Shown: positions 5,434 to 31,285, counted from the first letter of the stretch. The stretch is 49,904 bases of DNA from Candidatus Krumholzibacteriia bacterium (GCA_041484665.1 JBGPIA010000026.1:1-49904), one strand, 5' to 3'. Translations and numbers: made by a program. The notes: generated by a model from the sequence alone, not told the origin.

Positions 5434-5590
5434 GCGTCGCTTGCTGCACGCGGGCGCCGCTTTCGCATGCGGGGATCGCTCGCTGTCGCGCAGGGGCGTC
5501 GCTTGCTGCACGCGGGCGCCGCTTTCGCATGCGGGGATCGCTCGCTGTCGCGCAGGGGCGTCGCTCGCTGCACGCGGGCGCCGCTCTCGC
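5434..5590. repeat. 62-bp tandem repeat, about 2.5 copies, between convergent genes
   Basis: Unit gcgtcgcttgctgcacgcgggcgccgctttcgcatgcggggatcgctcgctgtcgcgcaggg starts at 5434, 5496 and 5558. Confidence 0.9.
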
Positions 5591-5599
5591 GAGCGGGCG

Positions 5600-7180
5600 T
5601 CAGGTGCGCCGCAGCAGGAGCAGCGTCACGTCGTCGGGTGCCCCGGCCACGCCCACGAACGCTTCCACCTCGAGGCGCGCCCGGTCGACGATTGCGGGGA
5701 GCGGCGCGCCGCGCATTTCCACCAGCGTGCGCTCCAGCGGCTCGATCCCCAGGAACTGCTCGCCGTCGGGCGTGGCCTCGCTGACGCCGTCGCTGAACAC
5801 GGCCAGCAGATCGCCCGGCGCCAGCTCCACCTGCGCCGCGGACGCGCGCAGGGTCTCCAGCAGCGCGATGGGTTGGCCGGTGCTCTCGAGTATCTCCACC
5901 GTTCCCGACGCGCGCACGAGCCGGGGGGGCTCGTGGCCCGCATTGACGTAGACCAGGCGACCGGACTGCGGCTCGAGCTCGCCGAAGAACAAGGTCAGGT
6001 ACTGCTCGGTCGGAAGGCTCTTGAAGAGCTGCCGGTGCAGCATCTGGATGAGCTGCTCGGGAGGGCCCTCGATCTCCGCCAGCATGCGCAGCAGCACCAG
6101 CGCCGCGCTCATGGCGAGCGCGGCCGGCATCCCTTTGCCCGCGATGTCACCGACGGTCAACAGCACGGTGCCCGACGGGCGCTCGATGCACTCGTAGAGG
6201 TCGCCGCCGACGCTGCGGCACATGACCTGATGGGCGGCGATCTCGTAGCCGTCGGGGACACTCAGGTGCTGCGGCAGCAGCCCTTTCTGGATGCGCGCGG
6301 CGGTCTGCATCTCGCTCTCCAGGGAGAGGTTGCGCAGCTTCACGGCCACCGCGTTCGCGGCCGCGGTGAGCACTTGGAGGTCATCCTGCGTGTAGCGCAC
6401 CGTGAGGTCGGCGGTGTCCACGTAGAGGATGCCGCGCACGCGCTGGTTGTCGAACAAGGGCGCGGCCATCGCCGACCGCAGCTGCAGCGCGGCGATGCTC
6501 ATGTGGCCGGCGGTGCGCGGGTCGGCGAAGGCGTCCTCGACCAGGACCGACTGCCGCTCGCGCAGCACCAGGTCCATGAGGGTGTGGCTCAGGCGCAGGC
6601 GATCCTCCTGATCGGGGACCCGCAGCCAGCGGGCGTGGGGTTCCAGACCGGAGCCGATGCCTTCCTCCTCCAGGAGGACCACCCGATCGGCTCTCACCCA
6701 GCGGCTCACGAACTCGCAGGCGGCCTGTCCGACGGCGTCGGGATCGGTGCCGGATGCGACCAGCTCGAAGAGCGAGCCGAGCATCTCGACGATGCGCGCC
6801 CGCGCGCCTTCGGTGTAGCCATCCTGCATACGATAGGACTCGCGCGACGAGACTTGTTCGTCGCCAGAGAACTCGGCCGAGATCCCGGTCGTGGGTATGG
6901 CGCGCCAGGCCGGCACGCCGGCAAACTTCAGCGTCGCCGACTCGGGCACGAGCACCTCGGTGGCGCCCACCGGTTTGCCGTCGACCTCGGTACCGTGGGT
7001 GCTCCCCAGGTCGCGCACGTAGAGCTGGTCGTCTTCCACCCGCAGGATGGCATGCTTACGGCTCATGACCGAGACGGGCACGCGCACTGCGCACTCGTCG
7101 GAACGGCCGAGCACATGCTCACCGTCGTCGAGCTCGATGGGGTGCAGCTCGCCGTCCCAGTACAATTGGAGGGTCAGCAT
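5600..7180 (-). CDS. FHA-GAF-PP2C (SpoIIE/RsbU-like) phosphatase
   Basis: FHA motifs GRS, SRKHA, DLGSTHGT; GAF; VGGDLY, GDIAGKG, FSDGVSEA, DDVTLL; AAGGAG RBS. Confidence 0.92.
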   Translation of the reverse strand: MLTLQLYWDGELHPIELDDGEHVLGRSDECAVRVPVSVMSRKHAILRVEDDQLYVRDLGSTHGTEVDGKPVGATEVLVPESATLKFAGVPAWRAIPTTGISAEFSGDEQVSSRESYRMQDGYTEGARARIVEMLGSLFELVASGTDPDAVGQAACEFVSRWVRADRVVLLEEEGIGSGLEPHARWLRVPDQEDRLRLSHTLMDLVLRERQSVLVEDAFADPRTAGHMSIAALQLRSAMAAPLFDNQRVRGILYVDTADLTVRYTQDDLQVLTAAANAVAVKLRNLSLESEMQTAARIQKGLLPQHLSVPDGYEIAAHQVMCRSVGGDLYECIERPSGTVLLTVGDIAGKGMPAALAMSAALVLLRMLAEIEGPPEQLIQMLHRQLFKSLPTEQYLTLFFGELEPQSGRLVYVNAGHEPPRLVRASGTVEILESTGQPIALLETLRASAAQVELAPGDLLAVFSDGVSEATPDGEQFLGIEPLERTLVEMRGAPLPAIVDRARLEVEAFVGVAGAPDDVTLLLLRRT

Positions 7181-8942: not shown

Positions 8943-8989
8943 CGCGGCGCTTCGGTCCGCGCCGCATCGTTCGCAGCGCGTTGCACCGC

Positions 8990-9124
8990 GCGTCGGGCCG
9001 CGTCGTGCGCCGTGCGTCGGGCCGCATCGTGCGCCGTGTGTCGGGTCACGTCGTGCGCCGTGCGTCGGGCCGCATCGTGCGCCGCGCCTCCGGCCGCACC
9101 GTGCGCTGCGCGTCGGGCCGCGTC
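8990..9124. repeat. 24-bp degenerate tandem repeat, about 5.5 copies
   Basis: gcgtcgggccgc(g/a)tcgtgcgccgt units between convergent genes. Confidence 0.85.
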
Positions 9125-10939
9125 TCAGGCGGGGGGCGGCAACCCCGGCTGCGGCTCGATCTTCAGGTGCACGTGCAGCGCGTAGTCGGACAGCTGCGTC
9201 TCGAACGTCTCGGCCAGCGCGGAGTTCTCGTTGAGCGCGTTGGCCCGCAGCACCAGATCACCTTCGAATGCCTGGGGCAGCGGGTTCAGATTCGGCAGCG
9301 GACCTCCTGACGCGGCCAGCGACGTGGAATGGATGTGCCCGTCGGGGTGGGGCTTGGAGAGCCACTCGAGCCGGCCCAGTGGCCAATTCTGGAAATTGAG
9401 CGTTTCCCACATCCTCGCCAGGACTGAGGTGATGATGTCCTCCGACAGCGCGGGATTCTCGATCTCCTGCCAGGTGATGCGGCGCCCGTTGCTCCAAGCA
9501 GCCGTGCGGGCCTGCAGCGTCTGCCGGTAGAAGACGTCGCCGACCGGGTCCTCCTCGTTGCCGTGGCTGGAGATGTGAAGCGTGTCGGTGTCGGCCAGGA
9601 ACAGCTCCACGGTCCAGCCGATGGGGATGGCTACGCCCGGCTCGATGTCCTCCACCGGCAAGCGCGTCCACCAGCGTCCGTTCACGCCTACGCGCAGCAG
9701 CCATTCCTCGGTCGGACCCTCCATTTCTGGGATATCCAGGGGTCCCGTGCGCAGGGGGTGCGTGCGGAGCGCGTCGACGTGGGAGAAGTGGAGGGTGACC
9801 TTGCGCACTCGACGCGCTTGCGCCAGATCCGGGTCTGGCCAGCCCAGCGAGATCATCACCCCGTAGTTCTCGACCTGCGGCGGCAGGAGAGTGAGCGGGA
9901 TCGTCACGCGCGCTTGGCGCGGGATTGCCGCATCGGGCGGCCAGGGCTCGATGCGCGGCTGCGCGTGCGCCAGGGCCAGCAGGTTCTGCTCGTTGCCAGG
10001 GTCGTGCCCGAAGAAGCGCCAGTGGACCAGGAACGGAGAACGCAAGCCGATGCTGTACACGTTGCTTCCGGATGCCGCGCCCATATCCAGGGGATAGACC
10101 GGCGGCTCCAGCCCATCGGGAGGATCGGGCAGGTCGACGAGGAACGTGTAGTCGCGGTCGTTGATGCGCGGCCAATCCACATACCCGCCTCGCCGGCAGG
10201 TGAAGAAGGTGAACTGTGTCGCGGGAACGAAGAGAGCATTCTCGCGGAACTTGAAGCCCTCCGTGCGCAACGTCGCCATGGCCTTGACCGGGTGCAACTC
10301 GGTGCGATGGCGCCTCTGGGTCTCGGGTGGGTTGGGGTTGTTGGGATCCAGGCTGGCCGAATGGCCGCAATCGTAGATCCAGCGCCCCGTAAGCCAGACC
10401 TTCTGCCCGCGTTGGGGCCAGCCCCAATCGGCGGCGCTGCGGGGATCGGCCCCGTGGTCGTAGTACCCCCCGGGGACGGGCGCTCCGCGGAGCCCCTGCG
10501 CGAAGTTGCCCGTGTCCCACTCGCACTCCAGCGTCTCGGAGGGGCCCAGGTTGTGTCCGGCTTCGTCGAACTGTGCGTTGCCGCGACCCCGCAGGTAGAC
10601 GTACGGCGGCTCGGGGATAACGTGGAAATTCCAGTCGTACCAGACGTGCCAGTTCAACAGCGGCGCGTCGGTCCAGGTCGTAAAGCTGTTCTCCAGCAAG
10701 CCCTCGAGCTCGTGCTCCGCATTTGCGGCCACGGGATCGCCGCGCTTCACCACGACCCACGATGGCGTCAGCACGCGCATCTCCGTGTCGAACGGGCCGC
10801 TGACGCTGCTTGCGAGCCGGCAGCCGGGTAGGTAGCCGGGCTGGCCGAACGTGCCGCGCTCCCATCCGTTTCCGTCGGCCGGCGTCGTGGGCAGGCCGCT
10901 GGGAGCTGGAAACCGTTGGAAGCTCTTGAGTGCCGTCAT
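9125..10939 (-). CDS. Hypothetical 604-aa Trp/Pro-rich protein
   Basis: Long ORF with protein-like composition; GGAG RBS; motifs GRWIYDCGH and TELHP. Confidence 0.8.
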   Translation of the reverse strand: MTALKSFQRFPAPSGLPTTPADGNGWERGTFGQPGYLPGCRLASSVSGPFDTEMRVLTPSWVVVKRGDPVAANAEHELEGLLENSFTTWTDAPLLNWHVWYDWNFHVIPEPPYVYLRGRGNAQFDEAGHNLGPSETLECEWDTGNFAQGLRGAPVPGGYYDHGADPRSAADWGWPQRGQKVWLTGRWIYDCGHSASLDPNNPNPPETQRRHRTELHPVKAMATLRTEGFKFRENALFVPATQFTFFTCRRGGYVDWPRINDRDYTFLVDLPDPPDGLEPPVYPLDMGAASGSNVYSIGLRSPFLVHWRFFGHDPGNEQNLLALAHAQPRIEPWPPDAAIPRQARVTIPLTLLPPQVENYGVMISLGWPDPDLAQARRVRKVTLHFSHVDALRTHPLRTGPLDIPEMEGPTEEWLLRVGVNGRWWTRLPVEDIEPGVAIPIGWTVELFLADTDTLHISSHGNEEDPVGDVFYRQTLQARTAAWSNGRRITWQEIENPALSEDIITSVLARMWETLNFQNWPLGRLEWLSKPHPDGHIHSTSLAASGGPLPNLNPLPQAFEGDLVLRANALNENSALAETFETQLSDYALHVHLKIEPQPGLPPPA

Positions 10940-13748: not shown

Positions 13749-14022
13749 ACCAGTTAAGCGCCCAATAAGCGCCCAGCTCGGCGCTGGCGCGCTCGCGCGA
13801 GGCCGCTGGGTTTCTGCGGACCTCGGTCAAACCACCGGGCGTCGATGGGTTCGCCGCTGCCACTGGACGTGGTGCGCCGCAGGGCGCAGACCGGGATGGG
13901 GCGGAAGCCGCTCGACCCACGCAGGGCTTGCAGGGAGCTCCAGCTCGACCCTTTGGAGCCGCGCCGTGGCAACGCACGCACGACACGAGCCGGACGATCA
14001 AGCACCGCTCCAGCACCGCGGC

Positions 14023-14186
14023 GATACCCCGTCGGGACCGCGTCGGGAGCGCGTAGAGCTGCGCCGACACCGCGTCGCAACCGCGTCGGCACCGCGCTAG
14101 AACCGCGTCGGCACCGCGCAGAACCGCGTCGATACCGCCCGGAAGCGCGCCGAAACCGTACTGAAACCGTACCGAAACCGCGTCCA
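14023..14186. repeat. Degenerate 10-11-bp tandem repeat (accgcgtcggc-like)
   Basis: accgcgtcggc, accgcgctaga, accgtactgaa, accgtaccgaa units upstream of the export operon. Confidence 0.7.
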
Positions 14187-14363: not shown

Positions 14364-15281
14364 ATGTCCGCGCTCGTGGCGACCCTGATTGCGGCCGCCC
14401 TCTGCTCTGCTACCGGTGTGTTCGCCGCAGCCGACGCCGCGAAGCCCGGGCCCGCCGACCTTTCGCGACCTCCGTCGACCGACCTTTCGCGACCTCCGTC
14501 GACCGACCCTTCGCGACCTCCGTCCGCCGACCTTTCCCCGCACGCAGTCGCCAGCCTCGCCGCCCAGGCGTTCAACGGCTTGCTTCTGCCCGCCTCCACA
14601 GCACTCATCAAGACGAAATATGACGAGCAGGTGGCTGAGGTGGCAGTCGAGGTTGGCTCGCGCGTATCGGCGGGGCAGACGCTGCTGCGTCTGGTGGACG
14701 ACGAGCAACGGGTGACCCGCGACCGCGCGGCCGCGCTGACCGACCGTGCCCGGGCCGAGCTCAAGCGGCTCGACGCGTTGCGCAAGAGCGAAGGGACCAG
14801 CGACCAGCTGCTCGAGCAGGCGCAGACCGCCCTGCGCGTCGCCGAAGCCGACCTGCAACTTGCCGAGATCCGCTTCAAAGAGCGCACCATCAAGGCGCCC
14901 TTCACGGGCATCGTTGCCGAGCGCTATGTAGACCCGGGTGCTTCGGTGCAGGAGGGCGATCCGTTGGTCCGCGTGACGGCGGTCACACCGCTGCGCCTGG
15001 AGGCGCTGCTGCCCGAAGAGATGCTCTCGCGCATGCGCGGCCACGCCCGCGTCGAGGTCTCCCTCACCGCGCCCGACACCGTGCTCGTCCTTCCCGTCCG
15101 CCTCGGCACGGTGCTCGTCGACCCGGCCAGCGGAACGTTCCCGCTGCACATCACCATCGACAACACCCAGGGCCGCCTGACCCCCGGTGCGAGCTGCACG
15201 CTGCGCATCCTGCCGGCGCAGGCCGGCGTGCCCGGGGGCTCGACCGCACCGCCGGCGACGACCGCCGATCGGTCCCCATGA
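14364..15281 (+). CDS. RND/HlyD-type membrane fusion (periplasmic adaptor) protein
   Basis: Signal peptide, lipoyl halves VEVGSRVSAGQTL and IKAPFTGIV, coiled hairpin, LTPGA; GGAGG RBS. Confidence 0.9.
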   Translation: MSALVATLIAAALCSATGVFAAADAAKPGPADLSRPPSTDLSRPPSTDPSRPPSADLSPHAVASLAAQAFNGLLLPASTALIKTKYDEQVAEVAVEVGSRVSAGQTLLRLVDDEQRVTRDRAAALTDRARAELKRLDALRKSEGTSDQLLEQAQTALRVAEADLQLAEIRFKERTIKAPFTGIVAERYVDPGASVQEGDPLVRVTAVTPLRLEALLPEEMLSRMRGHARVEVSLTAPDTVLVLPVRLGTVLVDPASGTFPLHITIDNTQGRLTPGASCTLRILPAQAGVPGGSTAPPATTADRSP

Positions 15282-17347
15282 CCTCGCGCCCCCCTCTCAA
15301 GCTGCGCGACGATCTGGTCGTACGCCGCCGCGTGTTCGGCGGCGAGGTGCGGTACGTGGTGAAGGACCCGCTGAGGCTGGACTACTTCACCATCGATCAG
15401 GTGAGCTATACGCTGCTCTCCTGCTGCGATGGCAAGCGCGACCTGGCGCAGCTCACGGAGCTGGCCCAGGGATTCTTCCCGGACATGGGCCTCGACCCGC
15501 TCAGCCTGCTGGGCTTCTTCGAGAACTACCGCAAGTTCCATTTCTTCGAGGACGCCTGGGAGCGCAACACGATGCTCATCGAGCGGCGGCGCACCGACCG
15601 CTCGCGCGCCCTCAAGAAGGCCTTCGCCAACCCCCTGGAGATCCACCTGCCCGCCTGGAATCCGGACCGCTTCTTCGACCGCATCGTCAAGCCGCTGCGC
15701 TTTCTGTGGACCCGTCCAGCGATGCTGGCCTACACGCTGATCTTTGTGCTGGCGATGTACGTATCGCTGACGCACCGCCGGGAGTTCGCGCTGCCCGTGG
15801 GTCAGCTGTACGTGATCCAGGGCAAGGCGTTGGTGGGGCTGGCCGCGCTGTGGTTCATCCTGCTGTTCTCCGTCGTGCTGCACGAGTGCGGCCACGGGCT
15901 CACCTGCAAGCACTACGGCGGCGCGGTGAACCGCATGGGTTTTTTGTTCCTGTACTTCAACCCGTGCATGTTCTGCGACGTGACGGAGGCCTATTTCTTC
16001 GACAACAAGAATCACAAGCACTTCGTCACGCTCGCGGGGGGCATCGTCGACCTGATGACCGCCTCGCTGGCGACGTTCATCTGGTTCTTCACGTCACCGG
16101 ATCTTTTCCTCAATCAGGTCGCCCACCGCGTGGCGCTGTTCAACGGCGTCACCGGGATCATGGTGAACTTCAACCCGCTGATGAAGTACGACGGCTACTA
16201 CCTGTTGAGCGACCACGTCGAGATGCCCAATCTGCGCGGTGACGCCTTCCGCTTCGTGGGCAATCGCATCCGCGTGCTGCTGCGCTTGCCCCACGAGCAG
16301 GAGCTCTACACCCGCCGCGAGCGCAAGGTGTACTGGACCTACGGCCTGCTGGCGCTGGGGTACTCGGTGTTCGTGCTGACGTTCATCTACCTGTTCGTGA
16401 GCCGCTGGGTGGTGGGGCACTACCGCGCGCTGGGCTGGGTCCTGGCCGCAGCGCTGCTGGTGTTGATGGGCAAACGCTACTTCCTGGGTGCCGGCCGCTT
16501 CGCACGCTTCTTCGCCCTGGACAAGGCCGGGCACTTCCGCCGCTTCCGCTGGGGGTACGTCGGCGGTGGTCTCGCGCTGCTCGCGGCACTCATGCTGGTA
16601 CCCATTCCGCGGCACGTGCGCGGCGAGCTCGTGTTGCGTCCGGGTCGAGAGGAAGTGTTGCGTGCGCAGGAGAGCGGCACGATCGACGCGGTGCTGGCCG
16701 ACGAGGGACAGTGGGTGGAGGCCGGCACCGCGGTCATGACGCTGCGCGACGAGACGGTGGCGCTGGAGCGCGCGGCGGCCAAAGCGGCGGGAGCCGGCTC
16801 GCGGCAGCTGCAGGCGGCCGCTCTGGCGTCGGTGGACGCCCCGCGCGCCGCGGCCTTCGGCGCGCAGGCCGCCGGAAGCGCCGCTCTCGAGCGCTACAGT
16901 GCCTCGCGCGAGCAGCGCCTGCGGGCTGTCGCCCCGGCGGGGGGCACGGTCCTCACGCCGCGCCTGCGCGAGCGAGTCGGCGCGAAGGTCGCCGCGGGGG
17001 ATACGCTGTGTGAGCTGGGCGACCTGCGCAGCTTGCGCGCCGAGGTCCTGCTGGACGAGCGGCTGATGGGGATCCTCGACGCTTCGGGTCAGGTCGAGGT
17101 ACGCACCTACGCGCTGCCCGGCCGCGTCGCCCGCGGCCACGTCGAGAAGGTTGCCCCGGCGTCCGACGACAGCCGTGCCGGAGAGGCGCGTCGCCTCTAC
17201 CGTGTGCTGGTGAGTCTGGACAACCCCGACGGCCTGCTGCGGCCCGGCATGACCGGCCGCGCACGCTTCGACGCAGGCGCCACCAGTGCGCTGGGCCATC
17301 TCGTCGGCAGTGCCGCCCGGGTGCTGCGCATCGATTTCTGGATCTGA
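15278..17347 (+). CDS. PqqD/RRE-like N-domain, M50 site-2 zinc metalloprotease and HlyD-type MFP fusion
   Basis: N-terminal YVVKDP..DYF...LL.CCDGKR; HECGH; NFNPLMKYDGY; several TMs; LRPGMTGRA; ATGA coupling to previous gene. Confidence 0.88.
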   Translation: MTSRPPLKLRDDLVVRRRVFGGEVRYVVKDPLRLDYFTIDQVSYTLLSCCDGKRDLAQLTELAQGFFPDMGLDPLSLLGFFENYRKFHFFEDAWERNTMLIERRRTDRSRALKKAFANPLEIHLPAWNPDRFFDRIVKPLRFLWTRPAMLAYTLIFVLAMYVSLTHRREFALPVGQLYVIQGKALVGLAALWFILLFSVVLHECGHGLTCKHYGGAVNRMGFLFLYFNPCMFCDVTEAYFFDNKNHKHFVTLAGGIVDLMTASLATFIWFFTSPDLFLNQVAHRVALFNGVTGIMVNFNPLMKYDGYYLLSDHVEMPNLRGDAFRFVGNRIRVLLRLPHEQELYTRRERKVYWTYGLLALGYSVFVLTFIYLFVSRWVVGHYRALGWVLAAALLVLMGKRYFLGAGRFARFFALDKAGHFRRFRWGYVGGGLALLAALMLVPIPRHVRGELVLRPGREEVLRAQESGTIDAVLADEGQWVEAGTAVMTLRDETVALERAAAKAAGAGSRQLQAAALASVDAPRAAAFGAQAAGSAALERYSASREQRLRAVAPAGGTVLTPRLRERVGAKVAAGDTLCELGDLRSLRAEVLLDERLMGILDASGQVEVRTYALPGRVARGHVEKVAPASDDSRAGEARRLYRVLVSLDNPDGLLRPGMTGRARFDAGATSALGHLVGSAARVLRIDFWI

Positions 17348-17361
17348 TCGCGTTCCCAAGG

Positions 17362-19722
17362 ATGACGTCCATGCGCGAGAACCGCCAGCCCCTCGGCGAC
17401 ACGAGCAACGCGCCGGCCTCTGCCGGGCAGCGCCAATCCCACTTGCGTGATCAGCAGCTCGCCGACCTGTACACCGAACTGGCGCGCAGCGCCACACGGC
17501 TGATGGTGGTCCACGAGGCGGGGCGCATCCTCAGCTCGACCCACGATGCCGAGCAGCTCGCGCAGGGGCTCTTATCGGTCATCGCCGAGGCGGTCTTCGC
17601 CGGCTCCGGCTGCGTGGCGCGCCTGCGCCAGGACCAGCTGGACATCCTCGCCACCGTGGGGCTGGAAGAGCCGGAGGTCGATGCGCTGGCGACCAGCCCG
17701 CGCGAAGCCTCGATCCTGTTCACGGTTGCCGACGAGCGATGCGTGATGGGACGCGATGAGCTCCTCGCGCGCTTCGGCGGTGTGCGTTCGCCAGCGCGAG
17801 GGAACGGTAGGCGGGCCGTGGATCGAAAGGCCGGCGCCGGCTCCGATGGAGGCGCGGAATTGGAAGGGAATCCCTCCACCGCCGCCTCTGCCGGCATTGC
17901 TGGGGCGACGATCGATGACCCGGGGCTCGCCGTCCTCCAGGAAGAAGCGCCCCCCGAGCCCGGCGAGCAGGAGTGGAATCCTCCGGATGAGGAACCGTGG
18001 GCGCCTCCCGACGAGGAGCCAGTGCCAGGCGAACCAGAACCGGACGAACCCGGTTTCCGCGAGGCCAGGCCCGACGCGCTGCTCGAGCCCGGCGCGCTCG
18101 AGCCCGGCCTGCTCGAGCCCGGGGCGTTTCAGCCCGCCGCGCTCGAGGGGGGCGAAACTGGCGCCGCGGCCATCGATGCGAGCTTCGAGCTGTACATCCC
18201 GCTGGAGATCGAGGATCGGGTGCTGGGGGTCGTCGCGTTGGGCCGCCGCGTCGACGGAGCCGCCTTCGGCGCCGAAGATCGCCAGCTCGCCGGCTCGCTG
18301 GCAGCGCACCTCGCGGTCGCGCTCGAGAGCGCGGCCCTGTTTGCGGACAAGGAGCGGCGCATCGAGCAGCTCAACGTGCTGCTGCAGCTCAGCAAGGAGA
18401 TCACCAGCACCCTCGACCTGGAGCGCGTGCTGGCCACCATCGCGCAGATGATGGGCATGGTGGTTCCCAACCGGCGCGCCGTCGTTGCGCTGGTGAGCGG
18501 CGGCAGCGGCGGTGTCGCCATCCGTGCCTCCTCCGAGCAGGGTTTCGACGCCCGCGCGGCCAAGGCCGATCCGCTCCTGCCCTGCCTGGTGTGGGCCCAC
18601 GGGGCACGCCAGGGTGTCAACGTCAGCCGCGCGCAGCTCGCCGCCGACCCGCAGGCATCCGGTCGTGATGTGCTGCTGCCGTATCTGGAGCGCGATGGCG
18701 GGCCGCGCGGCCTGTCGATCCAAGCGTTGGAGGACGATCAGGGGGTGCTCGGCCTGCTGGTGATCGAGAGCGATGCCGACCAGCCGCCGGTGGATGACGA
18801 GCAGGACGAGCTCGTTACGATCCTCGCCAATCAGACGACGGTCGCCCTGCGCAACGCCGAGCTCTACCAGCGCATGCCGATGATCGGGGTGCTCCAGCCG
18901 CTGTTCCAGAAGCGGGCTGGTGCCGGAAGCCGCCGCCAGCTGCTGCGCCGCCTGGGCGTGGCCGCCGCCATCGCGGCCCTGGGCCTGCTGGTGCCGCTGC
19001 CGGCTTGGGTGTCAGGCGACGCCTTCCTGCGCCCCGGCACGCCCGTCGCGCTGCGCGCGGAAACTGCGGGCATCGTCGAGCGGGTGCTGGTGAACGAGGG
19101 CGATCGCGTGAAGGCGGGGACGCTGGTGGCGACTCTGCGCGACGACGAGATCACCTCGCAGCTGGAGCAGGCGCGCGCCTCGATCCAGCGCGTGCGCGCC
19201 GAGGGCGCCCGAGCCCGCAGCGCCGCCGACCTGGCGACCTACCGCGCGCGCGAGGCCGAGCTGCTGCAGCTGCAGGAGCGGGAGCGCTACCTTAGCGCCG
19301 AGCTCGGCCGTGTCCGCGTCGTGGCGCCCATCGATGGCGTGGTGCTCACGCCGCGCGTGGAGCTGCGCCGGGGCGAGCAGCTCGGGCGCGGGGAGGTCTT
19401 TGCCGAGCTGGCCGACCTCTCGACCATGGAAGTCGACGTCACCGTGCCCGAGACGGACATCCGGGGCGTGGCAGAGGGGGCATCCGCTCGCCTGAAGGTG
19501 CACGCCTACCCGGGGCGGACGTTCCGCGGGAAGGTGCTGCGCATCGCCCCGCGCGCCGATGCCGCCGCCGACTTCCGCGTCACGCTGCTCGTGGACAACG
19601 CCGACGGAGCGCTGCGACCGGGAATGACCGGCCGCGCCCACGTGCGGATCGGCCCGCGGCCGATCCTGCAGTCCTTCCTGCGGCCGGCGCTGCGGGCTGT
19701 GCGGATGAAGCTGTGGATCTAG
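17362..19722 (+). CDS. Two-GAF-domain membrane fusion protein (GAF-GAF-TM-HlyD)
   Basis: GAF motifs VLGVVALG and LANQTTVALRNAELY; TM; VNEGDRVKAG, VVAPIDGVV, LRPGMTGRA. Confidence 0.88.
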   Translation: MTSMRENRQPLGDTSNAPASAGQRQSHLRDQQLADLYTELARSATRLMVVHEAGRILSSTHDAEQLAQGLLSVIAEAVFAGSGCVARLRQDQLDILATVGLEEPEVDALATSPREASILFTVADERCVMGRDELLARFGGVRSPARGNGRRAVDRKAGAGSDGGAELEGNPSTAASAGIAGATIDDPGLAVLQEEAPPEPGEQEWNPPDEEPWAPPDEEPVPGEPEPDEPGFREARPDALLEPGALEPGLLEPGAFQPAALEGGETGAAAIDASFELYIPLEIEDRVLGVVALGRRVDGAAFGAEDRQLAGSLAAHLAVALESAALFADKERRIEQLNVLLQLSKEITSTLDLERVLATIAQMMGMVVPNRRAVVALVSGGSGGVAIRASSEQGFDARAAKADPLLPCLVWAHGARQGVNVSRAQLAADPQASGRDVLLPYLERDGGPRGLSIQALEDDQGVLGLLVIESDADQPPVDDEQDELVTILANQTTVALRNAELYQRMPMIGVLQPLFQKRAGAGSRRQLLRRLGVAAAIAALGLLVPLPAWVSGDAFLRPGTPVALRAETAGIVERVLVNEGDRVKAGTLVATLRDDEITSQLEQARASIQRVRAEGARARSAADLATYRAREAELLQLQERERYLSAELGRVRVVAPIDGVVLTPRVELRRGEQLGRGEVFAELADLSTMEVDVTVPETDIRGVAEGASARLKVHAYPGRTFRGKVLRIAPRADAAADFRVTLLVDNADGALRPGMTGRAHVRIGPRPILQSFLRPALRAVRMKLWI

Positions 19723-19820
19723 TGGCGCCGGGGACGGCTCAGACGAGGATGAGGCCGGGGATCTAGCGGCGCTACCCGCGGTTCGGATCGATCGCAGGGG
19801 CCAAGCCTGGCACCGGGCGC

Positions 19821-20180
19821 TCAGCGCCCCAGCCGCTGGGCCAGCCGCGCACGCGCTTCCGGCGCGTCGGCGCACACGTTCAGGATCGCCTCCAGCTGGA
19901 CCACCTGCACCACGCGCAGCACCACATCGGGCACCGCGAACACGGCCAGCGAGCCGCCCAGCTGCTGGCAGCGCGTGAGCAGCCGGATGAGGATGCCGAT
20001 GCCGGCGCTGCTCATGGATTTGATGCCGCTCATGTCCAGCAGCAGCGAGGGTGACTGCTCAGCAATCCGCGATTCCAGGCTCTCCCACAACTGGGTCGAG
20101 CCGAGAGCGTCCAACCGGCCGATCGCCGTGGCCAGGAGCGCGCCCGCCATCTCGGGGTCGGGTCCGCAGGTGACACGCAT
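19821..20180 (-). CDS. STAS domain protein (anti-sigma factor antagonist)
   Basis: GRLDA, LLLDMSGIKSMSSAGIGIL; GGAGG RBS. Confidence 0.88.
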   Translation of the reverse strand: MRVTCGPDPEMAGALLATAIGRLDALGSTQLWESLESRIAEQSPSLLLDMSGIKSMSSAGIGILIRLLTRCQQLGGSLAVFAVPDVVLRVVQVVQLEAILNVCADAPEARARLAQRLGR

Positions 20181-20207
20181 CGAGACACCTCCACCGGGCT
20201 GTGCAGA

Positions 20208-20358
20208 TGTGGAAATGCTCAGGCGCAGGACCGGCGCCTTCCGCACATTCTGAGGAATTCTACAGTCGCGGGCCGACCCGCGCTGCGTCGACACTGTATC
20301 AACTGCTTGGCGGACAATGGAATAGAGATCTTGAAGTGCCGCCGGAACGCGGCTTGCC
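20208..20358 (+). promoter_or_regulatory. Sigma54 promoter: two UAS-like boxes, IHF site, -24/-12 element
   Basis: TGTGGAAATGCTCA 20208 and TGAGGAATTCTACA 20251; TATCAACTGCTTG 20297-20309 matches WATCAANNNNTTR; CCGGAACGCGGCTTGC with GG 20344-45 and GC 20356-57. Confidence 0.75.
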
Positions 20359-20452
20359 TTACTCACCGGCGAAGGAGTCGATCCCGGCAGTGCCCTCCGA
20401 GCGGGCATGCCCCCGGTCTCAGCAAAGCCCAACTCGAGGAGACAGGAACCCC

Positions 20453-21061
20453 ATGACCAACCGTACCATCACCCGCCCCACGTCGAATCCGGCTACGGTG
20501 ACGACGACCGACACCACCACCGAGAGCCGCGGGGAGTTCGGCCCCGGCTACGACGTGTCCAGGCTGACCCCCGCGCAGGTCGCGTCGCTTTCTCCCAGGC
20601 AGGTCCTTCAGCTATCGCCCCGGCAGATCGCCGCTTTCTCGCCCCGGCAGATTGCGTCGCTCTCTCCCCGGCAGATCGCCTCGCTTGCCCCGAAGCAGGT
20701 CCTGTCGCTGGCGCCCAAGCAGATCGCGTCGCTCGCGCCGAAGCAGATCGCCAGCCTGAGCCCCAAGCAGATCGCGTCACTCGCGCCGAAGCAGATCGCG
20801 TCGTTGGCGCCCAAGCAGATCGCCTCGCTTGCCCCGAAGCAGGTCCTGTCGCTGGCGCCAAGGCAGGTGGCCTCGTTCGCTCCGAAGCAGATCCTGGCGT
20901 TCAGCCCCAAGCAGATCGCGTCGCTGGCGCCCAAGCAGGTGGCCTCGCTGGCCCCCAAGCAGATCGCGTCGTTGGCACCGAGGCAGATCGCAGCGCTCAG
21001 TCCCAAGCAGATCGCCCAGCTGTCGCCGGCCGCGGTCGCCAAGTTGCCCACCAGCATGTGA
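20453..21061 (+). CDS. 202-aa protein: 37-aa Thr-rich leader plus 20 tandem octapeptides (L/F)(A/S)P(K/R)Q(I/V)xx
   Basis: Purine-rich RBS (GAGGAG/AGGA); repeats 20564-21043 with synonymous codon variation; own promoter and downstream hairpin. Confidence 0.88.
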   Translation: MTNRTITRPTSNPATVTTTDTTTESRGEFGPGYDVSRLTPAQVASLSPRQVLQLSPRQIAAFSPRQIASLSPRQIASLAPKQVLSLAPKQIASLAPKQIASLSPKQIASLAPKQIASLAPKQIASLAPKQVLSLAPRQVASFAPKQILAFSPKQIASLAPKQVASLAPKQIASLAPRQIAALSPKQIAQLSPAAVAKLPTSM

Positions 21062-21113
21062 CGGCTTGTCTCGCTGCTTGTCGGCAATCCCGGCCACGAT
21101 GGCCTGAGGCAGT

Positions 21114-21139
21114 GCGGGGGGCCCCGATGGGCCCCCCGC
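21114..21139 (+). terminator. Strong hairpin after the repeat-protein gene
   Basis: gcggggggccc-cgat-gggccccccgc, perfect 11-bp stem, weak U tail. Confidence 0.6.
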
Positions 21140-21339
21140 CGCTTGTCTGGTACCCGCTCCACCTCTGCGGGAGCGGGACGCGCCGTGGGATCATCCGTGG
21201 GACCATCCGTGGGGCACGCCACGGGACACGCTGTGGGGTGCGCTCATGGGGTGCGCTCATGGGGTGCGCTCGTGGGAGCGCGCTCGTGGGAGCGCGGTAG
21301 GGCGGGCGGGTGGGGCGGGCTGACGGCGCTCGGCCGACC

Positions 21340-23376
21340 CTACGTCCACCGCCCCGACTCGAACTCCTGGGCCAGGCGCTCCAGATGGCGTGCGTAGCAG
21401 GCGGGGATCTTGCTGAAGCGCGCGCGCAAGGAAGCCGACCGTCGCTGCGGTGACCGGCCGCCATGGCGCAGCGTCGCCAGCGCGTCGCCCAGCAGGCGGT
21501 CGATCTTCCCCTCCACACGACGCGTCGCGCCCGTGCCGCCGGCCAGAGCGCGCGCGGCGGTGCCCACGTCCCAGCGCGCCTCCGCAAGCGCCCTGAGGCA
21601 CTCGCCCTGCAGGTAGTAGGTGAGTCCGCTGCGCGAGACGACCGGGACGCCGCGGCGTCGGGCGGTGAAACGCTTGCGCTCAGCGAGCGCACGCTCCGCC
21701 AGGGCGATGTTGAAGTGGTGGCGGCGCAGCTCCTGCAGGACCCACGGCCCGACCTCGTCCCTGCGGCGGGGTCCCTCGTGGCGGGCTCCAGCCACTCGAT
21801 CGTCGCCGTGGTTCGCTCGATCCTCGCTGTCGGTCCCGCGGTGCTTACCGTCGGCGGTTTGGCGCTCTCCATCGTTCCCGCGGCCCTCACCGTCGGCTGT
21901 TCGGGGCTCACCATCGTTCCCGCGGCCGTCGCCTTCGCCGTCCTCGTCGAGCACGGGGGGTTGGGCCACGCGGAAGCGCGAGAACACCGCGATCACGTGG
22001 TGGTCCTCGATCTCGTCGGCGCCGCGTGCCTGGATCAGCAGCCCGCGTACGAGATTCTGCAGCTCGCGCACGTTGCCCGGGAACGAATAGACGCAGATGC
22101 GGCGCAGTGCGGCCACGCTCACCTTTGGGCGCTGCCGCGACGCCTCGGCGGCGTGCTGATCGAGGATCGCCTCGATCAGCAACGGAATGTCCTCGCGGCG
22201 TTCACGCAGCGGTGGGATGCGGATGGGGAAGACGTTGAGTCGGTAGAACAGGTCCTCGCGGAAGCGGCCGGCCTCGACCTCCTGCAACAGGTCGCGGTTG
22301 CTGGCGGCGATCAGGCGGCTCGCGCAGTCCACCGGCTTCTCGCCGCCGACCGGCGTGAACACTCCCTCCTGCAGCACGCGCAGCAGCTTGACCTGTGACT
22401 GGGGCGGCAGCTCGCCGACCTCGTCGAGGAAGACCGTCCCGCCTCGCGCGCGCTCGAACACCCCGTGATGGCCGCGCACCGCACCGGTGAAGGCGCCTTC
22501 CACGTGCCCGAACAGCTCGCTCTCCAGAAGAGGCTCGGGGATCGCGCCGCAGTTGACCGCCTCGAAGGGCGCGCCCGCCGCGGTGGCGACCTCGTGGATG
22601 ATGGAGGCGAGCAATTCCTTGCCAGTGCCCGACTCGCCCTCCAGCAACACCGGATAGTGCGTGGTCGCTACGCCCACCAGGTCGCTGAGGATGGTGGAGA
22701 TCACGGAACTGCGTCCCACGAAGCGCCGTAGTGGCGCATGGATCTCCTGCGGGTCGATGCTGTCGCGCATCGGCATCAATGCCACGGGGGCGCCGCGCGC
22801 GGGACGCGCGGCGGTCTCGCCGTTCGACGCATCGAGGGAGTGGCTGAGGATCGTGAAGAGGCCTGCCAGCGTCGTGAGCAGCCCCTGCTCGTCGGGGCCG
22901 TAGGGATACGCGCTGACGCGCTCACCCAGCAGCAGCAAGCCTGTCGGCCCTTCACGTCCGTCCAGCACGACGAGCGCGCGCGGGTCGAGCGCTGGCAGAA
23001 TCATCGCGATCCGCCGGCGCCAGGCGGCGGCGTCCGTGGCGGAAAGCAGGCGCACGGCCGCGCCCTCGCGCAGGTCCGCGCGCGCGGGCGCCTCGAGCAC
23101 CACCTCGCGCTGCTGGACGGGATCCTTCCAGGCGCCGAAGGCCTCTACCAGCAGCGCGCGGTCGCGGCCGCTGAGCTCCAGCACCGCGCCGCTGCCAGCC
23201 TCCGTGCTGCCCATGGCCGAGAGCAGGAGCTGGCGCAGCAAGCGATGCGGAGCATCGCCCGGACGGAAGCGGCAGCCAACCTCGACGATGGCGGCGATGG
23301 ACCGCAGGCGCCGGCGGAACACGTCCTGCGCCAAAGGCGCACGGTCGGGCCGGGTGGGGCGTCGCTGCGGAATCAT
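21340..23376 (-). CDS. Sigma54-dependent enhancer-binding protein (GAF-like, AAA+, extended HTH region)
   Basis: GESGTGKE, ESELFGH, GAFTGA, FLDEVGE, FREDLFYRL, FPGNVREL. Confidence 0.95.
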   Translation of the reverse strand: MIPQRRPTRPDRAPLAQDVFRRRLRSIAAIVEVGCRFRPGDAPHRLLRQLLLSAMGSTEAGSGAVLELSGRDRALLVEAFGAWKDPVQQREVVLEAPARADLREGAAVRLLSATDAAAWRRRIAMILPALDPRALVVLDGREGPTGLLLLGERVSAYPYGPDEQGLLTTLAGLFTILSHSLDASNGETAARPARGAPVALMPMRDSIDPQEIHAPLRRFVGRSSVISTILSDLVGVATTHYPVLLEGESGTGKELLASIIHEVATAAGAPFEAVNCGAIPEPLLESELFGHVEGAFTGAVRGHHGVFERARGGTVFLDEVGELPPQSQVKLLRVLQEGVFTPVGGEKPVDCASRLIAASNRDLLQEVEAGRFREDLFYRLNVFPIRIPPLRERREDIPLLIEAILDQHAAEASRQRPKVSVAALRRICVYSFPGNVRELQNLVRGLLIQARGADEIEDHHVIAVFSRFRVAQPPVLDEDGEGDGRGNDGEPRTADGEGRGNDGERQTADGKHRGTDSEDRANHGDDRVAGARHEGPRRRDEVGPWVLQELRRHHFNIALAERALAERKRFTARRRGVPVVSRSGLTYYLQGECLRALAEARWDVGTAARALAGGTGATRRVEGKIDRLLGDALATLRHGGRSPQRRSASLRARFSKIPACYARHLERLAQEFESGRWT

Positions 23377-27757: not shown

Positions 27758-30700
27758 GTGCGCCTGCCGGACCCGCGAATTTCCAGCCACCCGGACGCCG
27801 ATCCGCACGGGTTACCCGGCGCGCTGCGGCACGCGGCGCACGCGTTGGGCACACTCCTGCTCGCTGCTGGATGCCTCGCCGCCTCGACGGCTGTGGCTCC
27901 GGCGCTGGCGCAGATGGCCATGGATCCTGGCCTGGCCCGCTCGCTCGCGGCCAAGGGAGCGTTGCAGGGCGTGCAGCGCCAGCTGCTGGCGGCGCGCGAT
28001 CGCGGCTTCTTCGACACCAGCCCGGCACCACCGCCTCTGCTTGCCGCGCTGCCGGGGGCGACGCTTCGCAAGCAGTCGACGTGGCGAGCGCTGGTGCTGC
28101 TGGTGGACTTCTTCGACGCGCCGGCCACGGGCCGCTTCAGTCAAAGCGACTACAACCGCCTGCTCTTCAGCACCGGGATCGTGTCCACCGGGAGCCTGAC
28201 CGAGTTCTACCTCGAGAACAGCTACGGCAGGCTACAGATCATCGGGGACGTGGTGGGATGGCTGCGGATGCCGCACCCGCGGAGCTGGTACTGCAATACC
28301 GACGGCCTGCCGGGCACGGCCGACGACTACGGTCTCGGACCCCTTCCACACAACGCGCAAGCTCTCGCCATCGATGCAATCGCCGCGGCCGATGCGTCCG
28401 TGGATTTCCAGAACTACCGCAATGGACGCTCGCGGGTGGACGGCGTGTTCGTCGTGCACGCCGGCGCGGGCGCCGAGCAGAGCGGCAGCCCCAACGATCT
28501 GTGGAGCCATCAGTATTCGGCCAACACCACGACGGCCGACGGTGTGGAGGTCGGCTCGTACACCATGGAGCCCGAGTACCGCGCGGGGCAGGCGCTCACC
28601 GACATCGGCGTCTTCTGCCACGAGTTCGGCCACGCGCTCGGGGGGATGCCCGACCTGTACGACCTGGACGGTTCCAGCGGCGGCATCGGTAACTGGTCCC
28701 TCATGTCCACGGGCGTCTGGAACGACGGTGGCCACACGCCGGCGCACTTCGACGCCTGGTGCAAGATCAAGCTTGGATTCCTCGCGCCGGTGGCTCTGCA
28801 GGGCGAGGTGTTCGCGCTGCAGATCGCGCCCATCGAGCTGCAGGACGTGGCGTACAAGATCCAGCGCCCGGCGCACGCGTCCAAGGAGTACCTGCTGATC
28901 GAGAACCGGCGACGGCTCGGATTCGACGCCGCTCTTCCGGGAGAGGGACTGCTGGTCTGGCACATCGACGAGGCCGTCACGAACAATCGCAACGAAGCCT
29001 GCGGGCCCGCGCCGTTCCATCCGCTGGTGCGCCTGATCGAGGCCGATGGCCTCTGCCAGCTGGAGGCGGGAGGCCGCGGCGATCTCGGCGATCCCTTCCC
29101 AGGCAGCTTCCACGTGCAGCGCGTCGATGACAGCACGACCCCCGGCCTGCACGCCTACAGCGGCCAGGCCACGGACCTCCTCCTGAACCAGATCACCGAG
29201 CTGGGCAACTCGACGCGGCTCGACGTGCTGTTCTCCAGCGTCCTCATCAACCGCGTGCCGCTGGATTTCCAAAGCGTCGCCGCCGCGCTGGCGGCCGCAG
29301 GGCCCGGGGACGAGGTGCGCATCCGCGCCGCAGAGCTCCAGACCGGCAATTTCATCGTACCGGCGGGCGTGACCCTCAGCGGTGGGTGGGATGCCGCCTA
29401 CCAGACCCAGGATCCGCTGAGCCCCAGCGTGCTGGTGGCCGGGGCCAGCGCGCCAGTGCTGCAGGTGAGCGGGGGTGCATCCACCACGGGGACGGGGCCC
29501 GTGGGGATCGACGACCTGATCGTGCGTGGCGGGTGGGGGTTGGAGCAGTACCTGCCCGAGCACCGTTATCTGGGCGGTGGGCTGCTGGTGCTCGGCGGGC
29601 AGGCGCGCGTCACGCGCTGCCGCTTCGAGAACAACGTGGCAGGCCCCAACGGGCTGCTCCCCGCGCGGGGCGGCGCCATCGCCGGCAGCGGGTCGGACCT
29701 GGCGGTGGAGGACTGCAGCTTCCAGGGCAGCCTTGCCAAGGAGGGCTGCGACCTCTTTGCCGAGGGCGCAAGCGTGCAGATCCGCCGCTGCACGTTCGCC
29801 GGGGCCACGGCGTACGTGCCCGTGACGGTGGAGACGCAGCGCGGCGGGGCCGTGCTCATGATCGGTGGCTCGCTGCTGGAGTTGGAGGACTGCATGTTGA
29901 CGGGGTATCGAGGCGTTGGCACCGGCGGCGCAATTTACGCTGGAGGCGTCGGCAGCCTGATCCTGCGCCGGTGCTCGGTCACCCAGTGCAACGCGCAGCA
30001 GGGCGGCGGCCTCTATGCCGCGGCGGCGAGCGTCGAGCTGCGCGACTGCGCTCTGGTCTCCAACGTGGCGGTGGGCGGCGGTAGCGGCGGTGGCGGTGGT
30101 GGTGGCGCCTATGTCTCGGGCGGGCAGCTCACCTGGATCGGTGGGAAGCTGCAGGACAACCACGCCGACTTCGCGGCCGGCGGGCGGATCGAGAACTCCG
30201 CACCGGGCTCTCGCCTCGAGGGGGTGCTGCTACGCGGAAACGTCGCGGCCGTATTCGCGGGTGGGCTCGCGCTCACCAACGGAACGGCCGCCGTGGAGCA
30301 CTGCGTATTCCACTCCAACCAGGGCCAGTACGCCGGAGGCGGCGTGTACGTCTTCGCCCCATCGCCCGTCACGGCGAGCACGGTGCGCGACTGCGTCTTC
30401 CTGCAGAACGCGCCCACGGCGGTCACCAAGGGCGGTGATGCGCCGCTGCTGCTGCTGTACAACCTGTACTGGGCCACGCAGGGCCCGCAGTCCGTGATGG
30501 GCACATCCGCAGGAGCCTTCGACCGTGAGCTGTCGCCGGGATTCGCCGACGCCACCGTGGGCGATTACCACCTTGTCTGGGGAAGCCCCGCGATCGACGC
30601 CGGCGATCCGGCCGCAGCGGCGGACTTCGACGGCAGCCTTGCGGATCTGGGGATCTACGGCGGATCCTACGACCCGGGGGACCGACCAGCGGTACCGCGG

Positions 30701-31285
30701 ACCACGCTGGCTGTGCCGGACTTCAGTGGGGTCCTGGTCCAGTGGAGCCCGTCCACCGTGGGTACACCGCAGGCCCAGGCCCGCGTCTACGGCCAGCCGA
30801 ACGCCCAGCATCTGCCGATCCCGGGCGAGCTGGTCGGCACCGTGACCGGCGCTGCGACGAGCTGGACGCACGTCTCGCCCCCACCGGCGCTGCGCTATCG
30901 GGTGCAGATCGTCGACGCGCAGGGCCGGGCAGGCGGCTTCGGCCCCGTGGCCACCGTCACCGCGACCGGCGCGCCGCCCGCGGTACGCGAGCCGGTTGTG
31001 GGCCAGCCGGCGCCAAACCCGTTCAATCCCGCCGCCGAAGTACGCCTGGAGCTGCCGCAGTCGCGCTGGGTCCGCGCGGAGATCTTCGATCCCGCCGGTC
31101 GCCGCGTGCGCTTGCTCGCCGACGCGCGAATGCCCGAGGGCACGGCGATCCTGCGCTGGGATGGGCGCAACGCGCAGGGCAGGGCCGTGGCCTCGGGGAG
31201 CTATCTGCTGCGCGTCGCACTCGCCGACGCCGGTGCGGGCGCACCGCAGACCACCGTCGTGCGACACCTGCTGCTGGTGCGCTGA
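27758..31285 (+). CDS. M6 (immune inhibitor A-like) metalloprotease with beta-helix repeats and C-terminal FlgD-Ig-like domain
   Basis: LVLLVDF, VHAGAGAE, IWSH-like LWSH, HEFGHALG.PDLYD, WSLMS.G, GLLVWHID; GGAI/GGGL repeats; PNPFNP...WDGRNAQGRAVASGSY; start approximate. Confidence 0.88.
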   Translation: MRLPDPRISSHPDADPHGLPGALRHAAHALGTLLLAAGCLAASTAVAPALAQMAMDPGLARSLAAKGALQGVQRQLLAARDRGFFDTSPAPPPLLAALPGATLRKQSTWRALVLLVDFFDAPATGRFSQSDYNRLLFSTGIVSTGSLTEFYLENSYGRLQIIGDVVGWLRMPHPRSWYCNTDGLPGTADDYGLGPLPHNAQALAIDAIAAADASVDFQNYRNGRSRVDGVFVVHAGAGAEQSGSPNDLWSHQYSANTTTADGVEVGSYTMEPEYRAGQALTDIGVFCHEFGHALGGMPDLYDLDGSSGGIGNWSLMSTGVWNDGGHTPAHFDAWCKIKLGFLAPVALQGEVFALQIAPIELQDVAYKIQRPAHASKEYLLIENRRRLGFDAALPGEGLLVWHIDEAVTNNRNEACGPAPFHPLVRLIEADGLCQLEAGGRGDLGDPFPGSFHVQRVDDSTTPGLHAYSGQATDLLLNQITELGNSTRLDVLFSSVLINRVPLDFQSVAAALAAAGPGDEVRIRAAELQTGNFIVPAGVTLSGGWDAAYQTQDPLSPSVLVAGASAPVLQVSGGASTTGTGPVGIDDLIVRGGWGLEQYLPEHRYLGGGLLVLGGQARVTRCRFENNVAGPNGLLPARGGAIAGSGSDLAVEDCSFQGSLAKEGCDLFAEGASVQIRRCTFAGATAYVPVTVETQRGGAVLMIGGSLLELEDCMLTGYRGVGTGGAIYAGGVGSLILRRCSVTQCNAQQGGGLYAAAASVELRDCALVSNVAVGGGSGGGGGGGAYVSGGQLTWIGGKLQDNHADFAAGGRIENSAPGSRLEGVLLRGNVAAVFAGGLALTNGTAAVEHCVFHSNQGQYAGGGVYVFAPSPVTASTVRDCVFLQNAPTAVTKGGDAPLLLLYNLYWATQGPQSVMGTSAGAFDRELSPGFADATVGDYHLVWGSPAIDAGDPAAAADFDGSLADLGIYGGSYDPGDRPAVPRTTLAVPDFSGVLVQWSPSTVGTPQAQARVYGQPNAQHLPIPGELVGTVTGAATSWTHVSPPPALRYRVQIVDAQGRAGGFGPVATVTATGAPPAVREPVVGQPAPNPFNPAAEVRLELPQSRWVRAEIFDPAGRRVRLLADARMPEGTAILRWDGRNAQGRAVASGSYLLRVALADAGAGAPQTTVVRHLLLVR

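Follow-up and report, generated by a model that had tools for sequence, protein, structure and literature searches.

A SecA-less branch of the GAF-HlyD/M50-HlyD/HlyD module with a small candidate cargo in a Candidatus Krumholzibacteriia bacterium

The window analysed here (49,904 nucleotides) is a whole contig of the source genome, G000, a Candidatus Krumholzibacteriia bacterium (GCA_041484665.1), and carries at positions 14364..23376 a locus of six confirmed genes: those of a stand-alone membrane fusion protein (MFP), an M50 fusion, a GAF-MFP, a STAS protein, an octapeptide-repeat protein and a sigma54 activator. On sequence grounds, this locus is a SecA-less, small-cargo branch of the GAF-HlyD/M50-HlyD/HlyD module, conserved and not an artefact, and the repeat protein is very probably the substrate of the module. 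The six genes are as follows, RRE denoting the recognition element of RiPPs (peptides made on the ribosome and modified after translation) and AF2 an AlphaFold2 model.

14364-15281, plus strand: stand-alone MFP, 305 aa (TIGR01730, 125.4 bits against a cut-off of 94.9; PF13437, PF16576)
15278-17347, plus strand: RRE-M50-MFP fusion of 689 aa with some six transmembrane segments (Pfam, NCBIfam, AF2, hydropathy)
17362-19722, plus strand: GAF-GAF-transmembrane-MFP fusion, 786 aa (PF13492/PF13185/PF01590 and HlyD domains; transmembrane segment at residues 527-545)
19821-20180, minus strand: STAS (anti-anti-sigma-like) protein, 119 aa (PF01740, 48.2 bits)
20453-21061, plus strand: repeat protein, the candidate cargo, 202 aa (PF20080)
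21340-23376, minus strand: sigma54 enhancer-binding protein, 678 aa (PF00158, 210.5 bits)

An earlier sequence-only reading had assigned a HlyD-type adaptor to each of the first three genes, and Pfam found HlyD domains in all three at the positions it gave. All three MFPs retained the barrel, lipoyl and hairpin parts, and the stand-alone MFP had a hydrophobic signal-like N-terminus at residues 3-21, as judged by hydropathy. The same reading regarded the system as undescribed; however, its core had already been described. In the main text of their paper, Kamneva, Poudel and Ward (2015; PMC4452313) reported that GAF-HlyD, M50-HlyD and HlyD occur beside a secondary SecA and lack an ABC transporter, proposed M50 as an inner-membrane pore, found OEP only sometimes and left the substrate and the energy source open; that main text mentions neither PqqD, RRE, a leader nor sigma54, and its sections 16-17 name no cargo. 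Like the 2015 module, the window holds GAF-HlyD, M50-HlyD and a stand-alone HlyD in one cluster with no ABC transporter. Unlike it, the window has no secondary SecA and has a small cargo candidate with its own sigma54 promoter, an activator and a STAS protein. Because the three-HlyD feature is present and the SecA feature is not, the window locus is a variant rather than a plain member of the 2015 module. The SecA-less branch, the RRE, the interchangeable small cargo and the sigma54/palindrome control were, tentatively, not found in print, and the supplements of PMC4452313 (M50 phylogeny, S8 Fig) may include SecA-less members. The sections consulted of 10.64898/2026.03.19.712371, PMC8277102 and PMC4446572 contain no description of the present branch, and no experimental study of the module family was found in the literature.

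In agreement with the earlier reading, no ABC exporter or other ABC ATPase, RND pump, TolC or tailoring enzyme lay near the module among the scanned genes called on the contig, nor was a radical SAM gene present among them. The TolC family, optional in the 2015 module as OEP, was represented in G000 by 20 OEP matches corresponding to 10 genes, every one on other contigs and none on that of the window. A single full-length SecA copy was found in G000 (93.65% complete) and likewise in genomes G211, G413 and G281, and G210 had one full-length copy and, where a contig ends, a further match of 48 residues; a secondary short SecA_DEAD was not found in the locus or in the G000 genome. The description of the system as ATPase-less thus stands for the branch of the window, with its one SecA gene, but not for the family as a whole, in which four of nine plasmid modules (see below) carry a short SecA.

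Three features were mapped within the M50 fusion.

15284..15556, plus strand: RRE (PqqD-like) domain at residues 3-93, in which three helices follow three strands (AF2 model)
15881..15895, plus strand: HExxH zinc motif HECGH, residues 202-206
16166..16195, plus strand: NxxPxxxxDG third-ligand motif NFNPLMKYDG, residues 297-306

Both protease motifs were intact, as had been noted, and residues H202, E203, H206, N299, P300, D305 and G306 were invariant in all 50 homologues aligned out of 120 listed matches. In the AF2 model of the fusion (mean predicted local distance difference test score, pLDDT, 86.4), the membrane core matched RseP (7w6z; Z 10.2, root-mean-square deviation (rmsd) 3.1 over 133) and SpoIVFB (8vjl; Z 10.0, rmsd 5.0 over 169), and the protein has the HExxH and NxxPxxxxDG motifs of an M50 site-2 protease within a membrane core. 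The Pfam M50 match was weak (23.7 bits, below the cut-off of 27.2). The best NCBIfam match, over residues 95-400, was the daptide protease NF041824, at 176 bits against the 300 required and with no daptide tailoring enzymes nearby; EpeP/YydH NF058609 scored 42.7 bits against 225, with no radical SAM epimerase among the scanned genes. The fusion therefore belongs to neither family. Foldseek and PDB sequence searches with the full fusion were set aside, their matches being dominated by MFPs. The RRE-like domain that the earlier reading had suggested was borne out by the AF2 model, which shows a winged fold of three strands and three helices spanning about 85 residues, and by fold matches (VIA-align) to TigE (8vpo; Z 9.8, rmsd 2.2 over 82) and to two lasso-peptide B1 RREs (6jx3, Z 9.6, rmsd 2.7 over 84; TbiB1 5v1u, Z 9.5, rmsd 2.7 over 82); a PqqD hidden Markov model gave weak matches in 4 of the 50 homologues.

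The fusion thus shares an RRE and an M50 core with the RiPP M50 leader proteases (daptide NF041824 and EpeP/YydH NF058609) and differs from them in the fused MFP, the lack of tailoring enzymes and the diderm tripartite setting. EpeP is itself thought to cleave and export its epipeptide, according to the sections consulted of PMC10885120. The locus also resembles type I secretion by a peptidase-containing ABC transporter (PCAT) with MFP and TolC, as far as it is set out in the parts consulted of PMC8277102, in having a putatively leader-cutting inner-membrane part, a probable MFP conduit and a candidate cargo independent of Sec. Unlike PCAT systems, it has no ABC or C39 domain, and its three MFPs differ from one another, one being joined to a protease and one to GAF domains; it thus has the MFP of a type I system and not the dedicated ABC transporter. 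A complex prediction with M50 residues 1-440 and cargo residues 1-60 (score 0.05, mark 0.32) was counted neither for nor against an interaction.

The repeat protein was confirmed to contain 20 octads, starting at about residue 37, and was found to belong to a known Pfam family, PF20080 ALTTAQ (85.7 bits against a cut-off of 26.4). It shares that family with other ALTTAQ repeat proteins and is distinguished by being a stand-alone protein of 202 aa with a short basic leader. Its net charge is +19, and it has no transmembrane segment. Codon differences among 19 repeat units were 372 synonymous and 458 non-synonymous in the coding frame, the corresponding counts for the remaining frames being 198/614 and 13/706; the called frame is therefore the selected one, under protein-level selection. 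The ten listed Atlas neighbours all carried PF20080 (scores 0.86-0.88), serving as leads only. A word-index search returned only two weak matches, and the best hit of the fold search (7qlr; Z 7.2, rmsd 3.8 over 182) belonged to a range of common helical arrangements, with no functional lead. AF2 predicted a disordered leader (about residues 1-30) followed by one continuous alpha-solenoid with one short helix per octad and pLDDT above 90 across 155 residues. The earlier suggestion that the protein is released as multiple peptides was not sustained, because a single solenoid is predicted for the repeat region. Cutting of the repeat region into many short peptides would suit the twenty near-identical octads and the short-peptide cargos of relatives described below, but it is highly improbable in view of this single confident solenoid, the presence of the PF20080 repeat in long proteins as well, and the lack of any second peptidase or tailoring enzyme conserved beside the module. 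The cargo orthologue at L002:7099-7707 carries Cys in many octads (nine Cys), unlike all others.

A genome scan for close relatives gave six loci with 59-67% identity, including two from Candidatus Eisenbacteria and one from Acidobacteriota. The STAS protein, the octapeptide protein and the activator accompanied the module in four of the four close relatives with enough flank, the trio lying on the opposite side of the module in L002 and the block being retained in L001 and L004 despite inserted genes or insertion sequence elements. The STAS gene, divergent from the repeat gene, kept its position in L001, L002, L004, L005 and L019, and the repeat gene and activator lay on a separate short contig in G212. 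At L001:12088-13840, and in that locus only, methyltransferase and sulfotransferase genes are inserted between those of the cargo and the activator; they were not counted as tailoring enzymes. The distribution is patchy, given that G000 alone carried the close clade among 201 genomes of its class and PF20080 among 208 genomes of its phylum; in the phylum of G210 (Eisenbacteria), the M50 homologue was present in 38 of 206 genomes, from which all the listed places outside tier 1 were taken, the second copy in G405 lying within another region.

In a quick version of the M50 tree, from which neither a donor nor an order of events is claimed, the three-adaptor modules including the window formed one clade (27 of 56 rows; Shimodaira–Hasegawa-like approximate likelihood ratio test 98). 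A sigma54 box (GG-N10-GC, at the same place) and a small basic gene stood beside all 24 modules with enough sequence; L003, L006, L017, L018, L055, L068, L108, L110, L111 and L114 were left out owing to a contig end or too short a locus. The strict rule of box plus small gene fired at 18 of 2,940 gene ends in G000 as background, and the two figures are a contrast and not a p-value because these loci, which are kin, also served to shape the rule. As read from these gene neighbourhoods, the link between the module and the small protein is not chance. Homologous modules do adjoin such proteins, contrary to the condition under which the sequence-only reading was to be refuted. Across the clade the cargo bodies comprised two kinds of octamer, heptamers, one hexamer, and peptides of 41-51 aa that join a Lys-rich head to a short, variable tail and sometimes occur in two copies, each with a promoter. 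Every cargo was cationic (net charge +6 to +29), and cargo type tracked the subclades of the quick M50 tree.

The regulatory elements around the repeat gene are as follows, PWM denoting a position weight matrix.

20208..20221, unstranded: candidate activator-binding palindrome, distal copy (PWM score 13.7)
20251..20264, unstranded: candidate activator-binding palindrome TGYGGA-N2-TCCRCA, 91 nt upstream of the -24 box
20342..20358, plus strand: sigma54 -24/-12 promoter box, GG-N10-GC
21106..21150, unstranded: GC-rich hairpin where the repeat and activator genes converge, -34.8 kcal/mol

The repeat gene thus has a sigma54 promoter of its own, as had been proposed, and the box is the one kept in all 24 loci; G000 has one rpoN. 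The summed palindrome score was 399 across the 24 upstream regions, compared with 227-250 in eight shuffles, and the palindrome lay 75-146 nt upstream of the box with clusters near 90, 112 and 132-146. The proximal copy was the best among 1,258 sigma54-like boxes in G000, its site having been included in the PWM. The hairpin has no U-tract and was absent from the intrinsic terminator scan. The activator combines a GAF-like N-terminus, an AAA+ domain with Walker A, GAFTGA and Walker B intact, and a long family-specific C-terminal domain; with rpoN in the genome, these are the features of a sigma54 enhancer-binding protein. A GAF_3 match was found in the L074 orthologue. Relative to the 24 loci, the activator was adjacent in 15, elsewhere in the genome in six and cut off by a contig end in three; an orthologue lay elsewhere in four of five genomes, a count weakened by paralogues without a module.

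The activator C-terminal domain was present in 41 of the 206 genomes of the G210 phylum, including all 28 with this M50 clade. Among the 13 others, G412 has a module and peptide, and in the remaining 12 the activator stood without an adjoining module. The gaps read for 10 of these 12 genomes and for six of the G000 class contained no K-rich peptide gene, and no full-length M50 fusion was found in the five genomes searched with the M50 profile. Cargo and module thus appear to be present or absent as a pair, and the activator has further targets. The small protein could instead be a cytoplasmic cationic nucleic-acid binder within the activator regulon, unrelated to the module; it is cationic and Lys-rich, its SPK-like motifs presumably resemble histone-tail motifs, and the activator does occur without the module. 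We nevertheless regard this as very unlikely, because the peptide gene was missing from the gaps read where the activator had no module beside it, and because six loci keep peptide and module together with the activator elsewhere. A second full-length activator paralogue in G000 (C1:316867-318846, plus strand; 35.5% over 639 aa) has no module nearby, and downstream of it a sigma54-like box lies in a 680-nt gap.

More distant versions of the module differ in regulators and cargo. In the class of G208, 24 of 119 genomes had the M50 homologue, and 20 loci were taken out of 24 further places. The GAF-MFP was present in 17 of these 20, of which 14 had a small basic-head gene, mostly adjoining a response-regulator activator, and the regulators that accompany the module in this class are a kinase and a response-regulator activator. 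Solo M50-MFP genes adjoined short peptides with an LExR-type head at 11 of 16 loci in the G210 phylum and three of three in the G208 class. A plasmid set gave 34 matches, of which 11 regions were examined and nine held three adaptor genes. All nine modules stood beside a large repeat or surface-type protein (giant in eight), six had TolC and four a short SecA; no ABC exporter was annotated in any of the nine stretches, the PLSDB tables being incomplete. Two giant plasmid proteins with translated starts had a basic stretch and an LEPR-like motif. The module family is a large one: the RRE-M50 query matched 1,659 clusters (at 50% identity) at E <= 1e-30 and 6,224 at E <= 1e-10. Processing without outer-membrane export, in which the cargo is cut and kept in the periplasm or at the envelope with the MFPs as a scaffold, would accord with the absence of TolC from the locus and with the three of nine plasmid modules that list none in the stretch taken. 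It is improbable, however, as the MFPs keep barrel, lipoyl and hairpin parts, 10 TolC-family genes exist in G000 and TolC accompanies six of the nine plasmid modules.

Taking these observations together, we propose the following scenario for the window locus. A signal read by the GAF-type activator would cause sigma54 RNA polymerase to transcribe the small gene; promoter, palindrome and activator are conserved together across loci. By analogy with RiPP systems, the cytoplasmic RRE of the M50 fusion would bind the basic leader of the cargo, and the M50 zinc site, with its catalytic residues intact, may then cut that leader. Across the periplasm, the three different MFPs would build a conduit leading to a TolC whose gene lies elsewhere, through which the cationic alpha-solenoid of about 160 aa could leave as one folded unit. 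Because the same slot in relatives holds other repeats or peptides of 41-51 aa, the machine appears to read the head and to carry a variable body. We lean towards the view that the protease recognises and cuts the leader and that the remainder is exported through a TolC encoded elsewhere; cleavage of the cargo is probable, and its passage across the outer membrane is only slightly favoured. Candidate roles of the product outside are a matrix or adhesive cationic polymer, an antimicrobial or a signal.

Several points weigh against this scenario. The leaders differ between subclades, with no clear shared motif or cleavage site beyond basic charge, and no TolC occurs in the 24 loci as far as the genes there are labelled. 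In the G208 class, three of the 17 GAF-MFP loci (L156, L158 and L161) have no adjacent small gene, and a remote cargo search by promoter pattern in G479, G475, G476 and G257 gave six sites, none an obvious cargo. The box-plus-small-gene rule and the palindrome were derived from the loci that they score, which are kin and not independent. Nor is the activator family confined to the module: it occurs with no module beside it in 12 genomes of the G210 phylum and six of the G000 class, and G000 has the second paralogue. The chief difficulty concerns energy, as no source was seen in the form of an ABC transporter, an RND pump or a second SecA, and every cargo is cationic. Moving a cationic cargo outwards would oppose the membrane potential. 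As a conjecture, export could be ratcheted by the solenoid folding once outside, an explanation that does not extend to the 40-aa peptides.

The leading alternative is that the locus serves signalling, or acts as a checkpoint, instead of bulk secretion. In such a circuit the small protein would be a peptide of a pheromone-like or anti-activator kind, whose processing by the M50/MFP proteins is reported through GAF domains, with STAS or a two-component pair, to the sigma54 activator. Dedicated regulators do occur in every version (GAF activator and STAS, or the kinase and response-regulator activator of the G208 class), many cargos are no longer than 41-51 aa, vary in their tails and are sometimes duplicated with their own promoters, and the activator N-terminus profile matches the GAF-MFP (E 5e-7). 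That match ranks fifth of eight in G000, and the GAF similarity is not specific enough to show a GAF-GAF link between the two proteins. A 200-250-aa solenoid of varying repeat number would be an unlikely pheromone, and distant modules sit with giant proteins and TolC. We consider this circuit unlikely overall.

Beyond the export scenario, it is conceivable, and rather doubtful, that the module provides an ATPase-free secretion route in which the RRE-gated M50 protease is itself the translocator, joined to TolC by a mixed conduit of three MFPs. Such a route would cut and export whatever follows a recognised head, be it a short peptide, a 160-aa solenoid or a giant adhesin, the last with the help of an added SecA motor. 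The window locus would then offer a minimal model of it that can be expressed. The SecA-bearing versions adjoin proteins of thousands of residues, which are hard to handle. The present branch offers candidate cargos of 40-250 aa, natural cargo swaps and a promoter of its own, so that the replacement of a type I ABC pump by an intramembrane protease becomes a directly testable idea. The core idea is already in print in the main text of PMC4452313, and the small swappable candidate cargo with its own promoter is what this branch adds.

Further observations concern genes related to the module or lying near it. In module-less activator genomes, the palindrome and sigma54 box preceded a conserved structured stretch with no peptide gene at the following places.

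L168:10400-10510, minus strand: structured stretch
L170:9590-9700, plus strand: structured stretch
L171:5030-5145, minus strand: structured stretch
L175:8570-8675, plus strand: structured stretch
L177:9245-9360, plus strand: structured stretch
L178:8825-8935, plus strand: structured stretch

This stretch consists of a long stem with an inner hairpin, with two-sided changes in 8 of 24 pairs, and is a candidate new sigma54-dependent small RNA; Rfam gave no match in the nine loci scanned, including five of these six. A second, different conserved non-coding stretch, with a terminator-like hairpin at its end, lies beside the activator homologue in the class of G000.

L181:9474-9865: second non-coding stretch, sigma54-like box upstream
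L182:9384-9884: second non-coding stretch, sigma54-like box upstream
L183:10063-10517: second non-coding stretch
L185:10062-10466: second non-coding stretch

Rfam gave no match to it in L181, L182 and L185. Around the solo M50-MFP genes of L084, L086, L119, L122 and L123, two or three LExR-head peptides with Gly/Asn/Pro-rich tails flank one protease gene and are conserved between genomes; no tailoring enzyme was noticed there. At L127:3-9673 and L083:840-10606, an M50-MFP gene lies inside clusters that are radical-SAM-like as judged by N-terminal sequence only, and L127 encodes a peptide of 45 aa that looks like a precursor, its leader being acidic and its tail rich in Trp, Cys and Met; these regions are candidate RiPP clusters.

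The GAF-MFP of the window (17362-19722) has an acidic, Pro-rich, low-complexity insertion in its first GAF region (residues about 130-270) that is shorter or absent in orthologues. FHA-GAF-SpoIIE phosphatase genes lie near several STAS-bearing modules (window 5600-7180, minus strand; L001:3744-5417; L142:4015-5793) and possibly provide a partner-switching input. Elsewhere in the window are a 604-aa open reading frame with no Pfam match (9125-10939, minus strand) and two genes not seen adjoining the module in relatives, encoding a Calx-beta protein with a paralogue on C12 (12244-13608, plus strand) and an M6 peptidase/beta-helix/FlgD-Ig protein (27914-31285, plus strand). Degenerate tandem repeats in intergenic or linker positions occupy 5434-5601, 8982-9121, 14015-14181, 14455-14536, 32369-32539 and 41729-41803.

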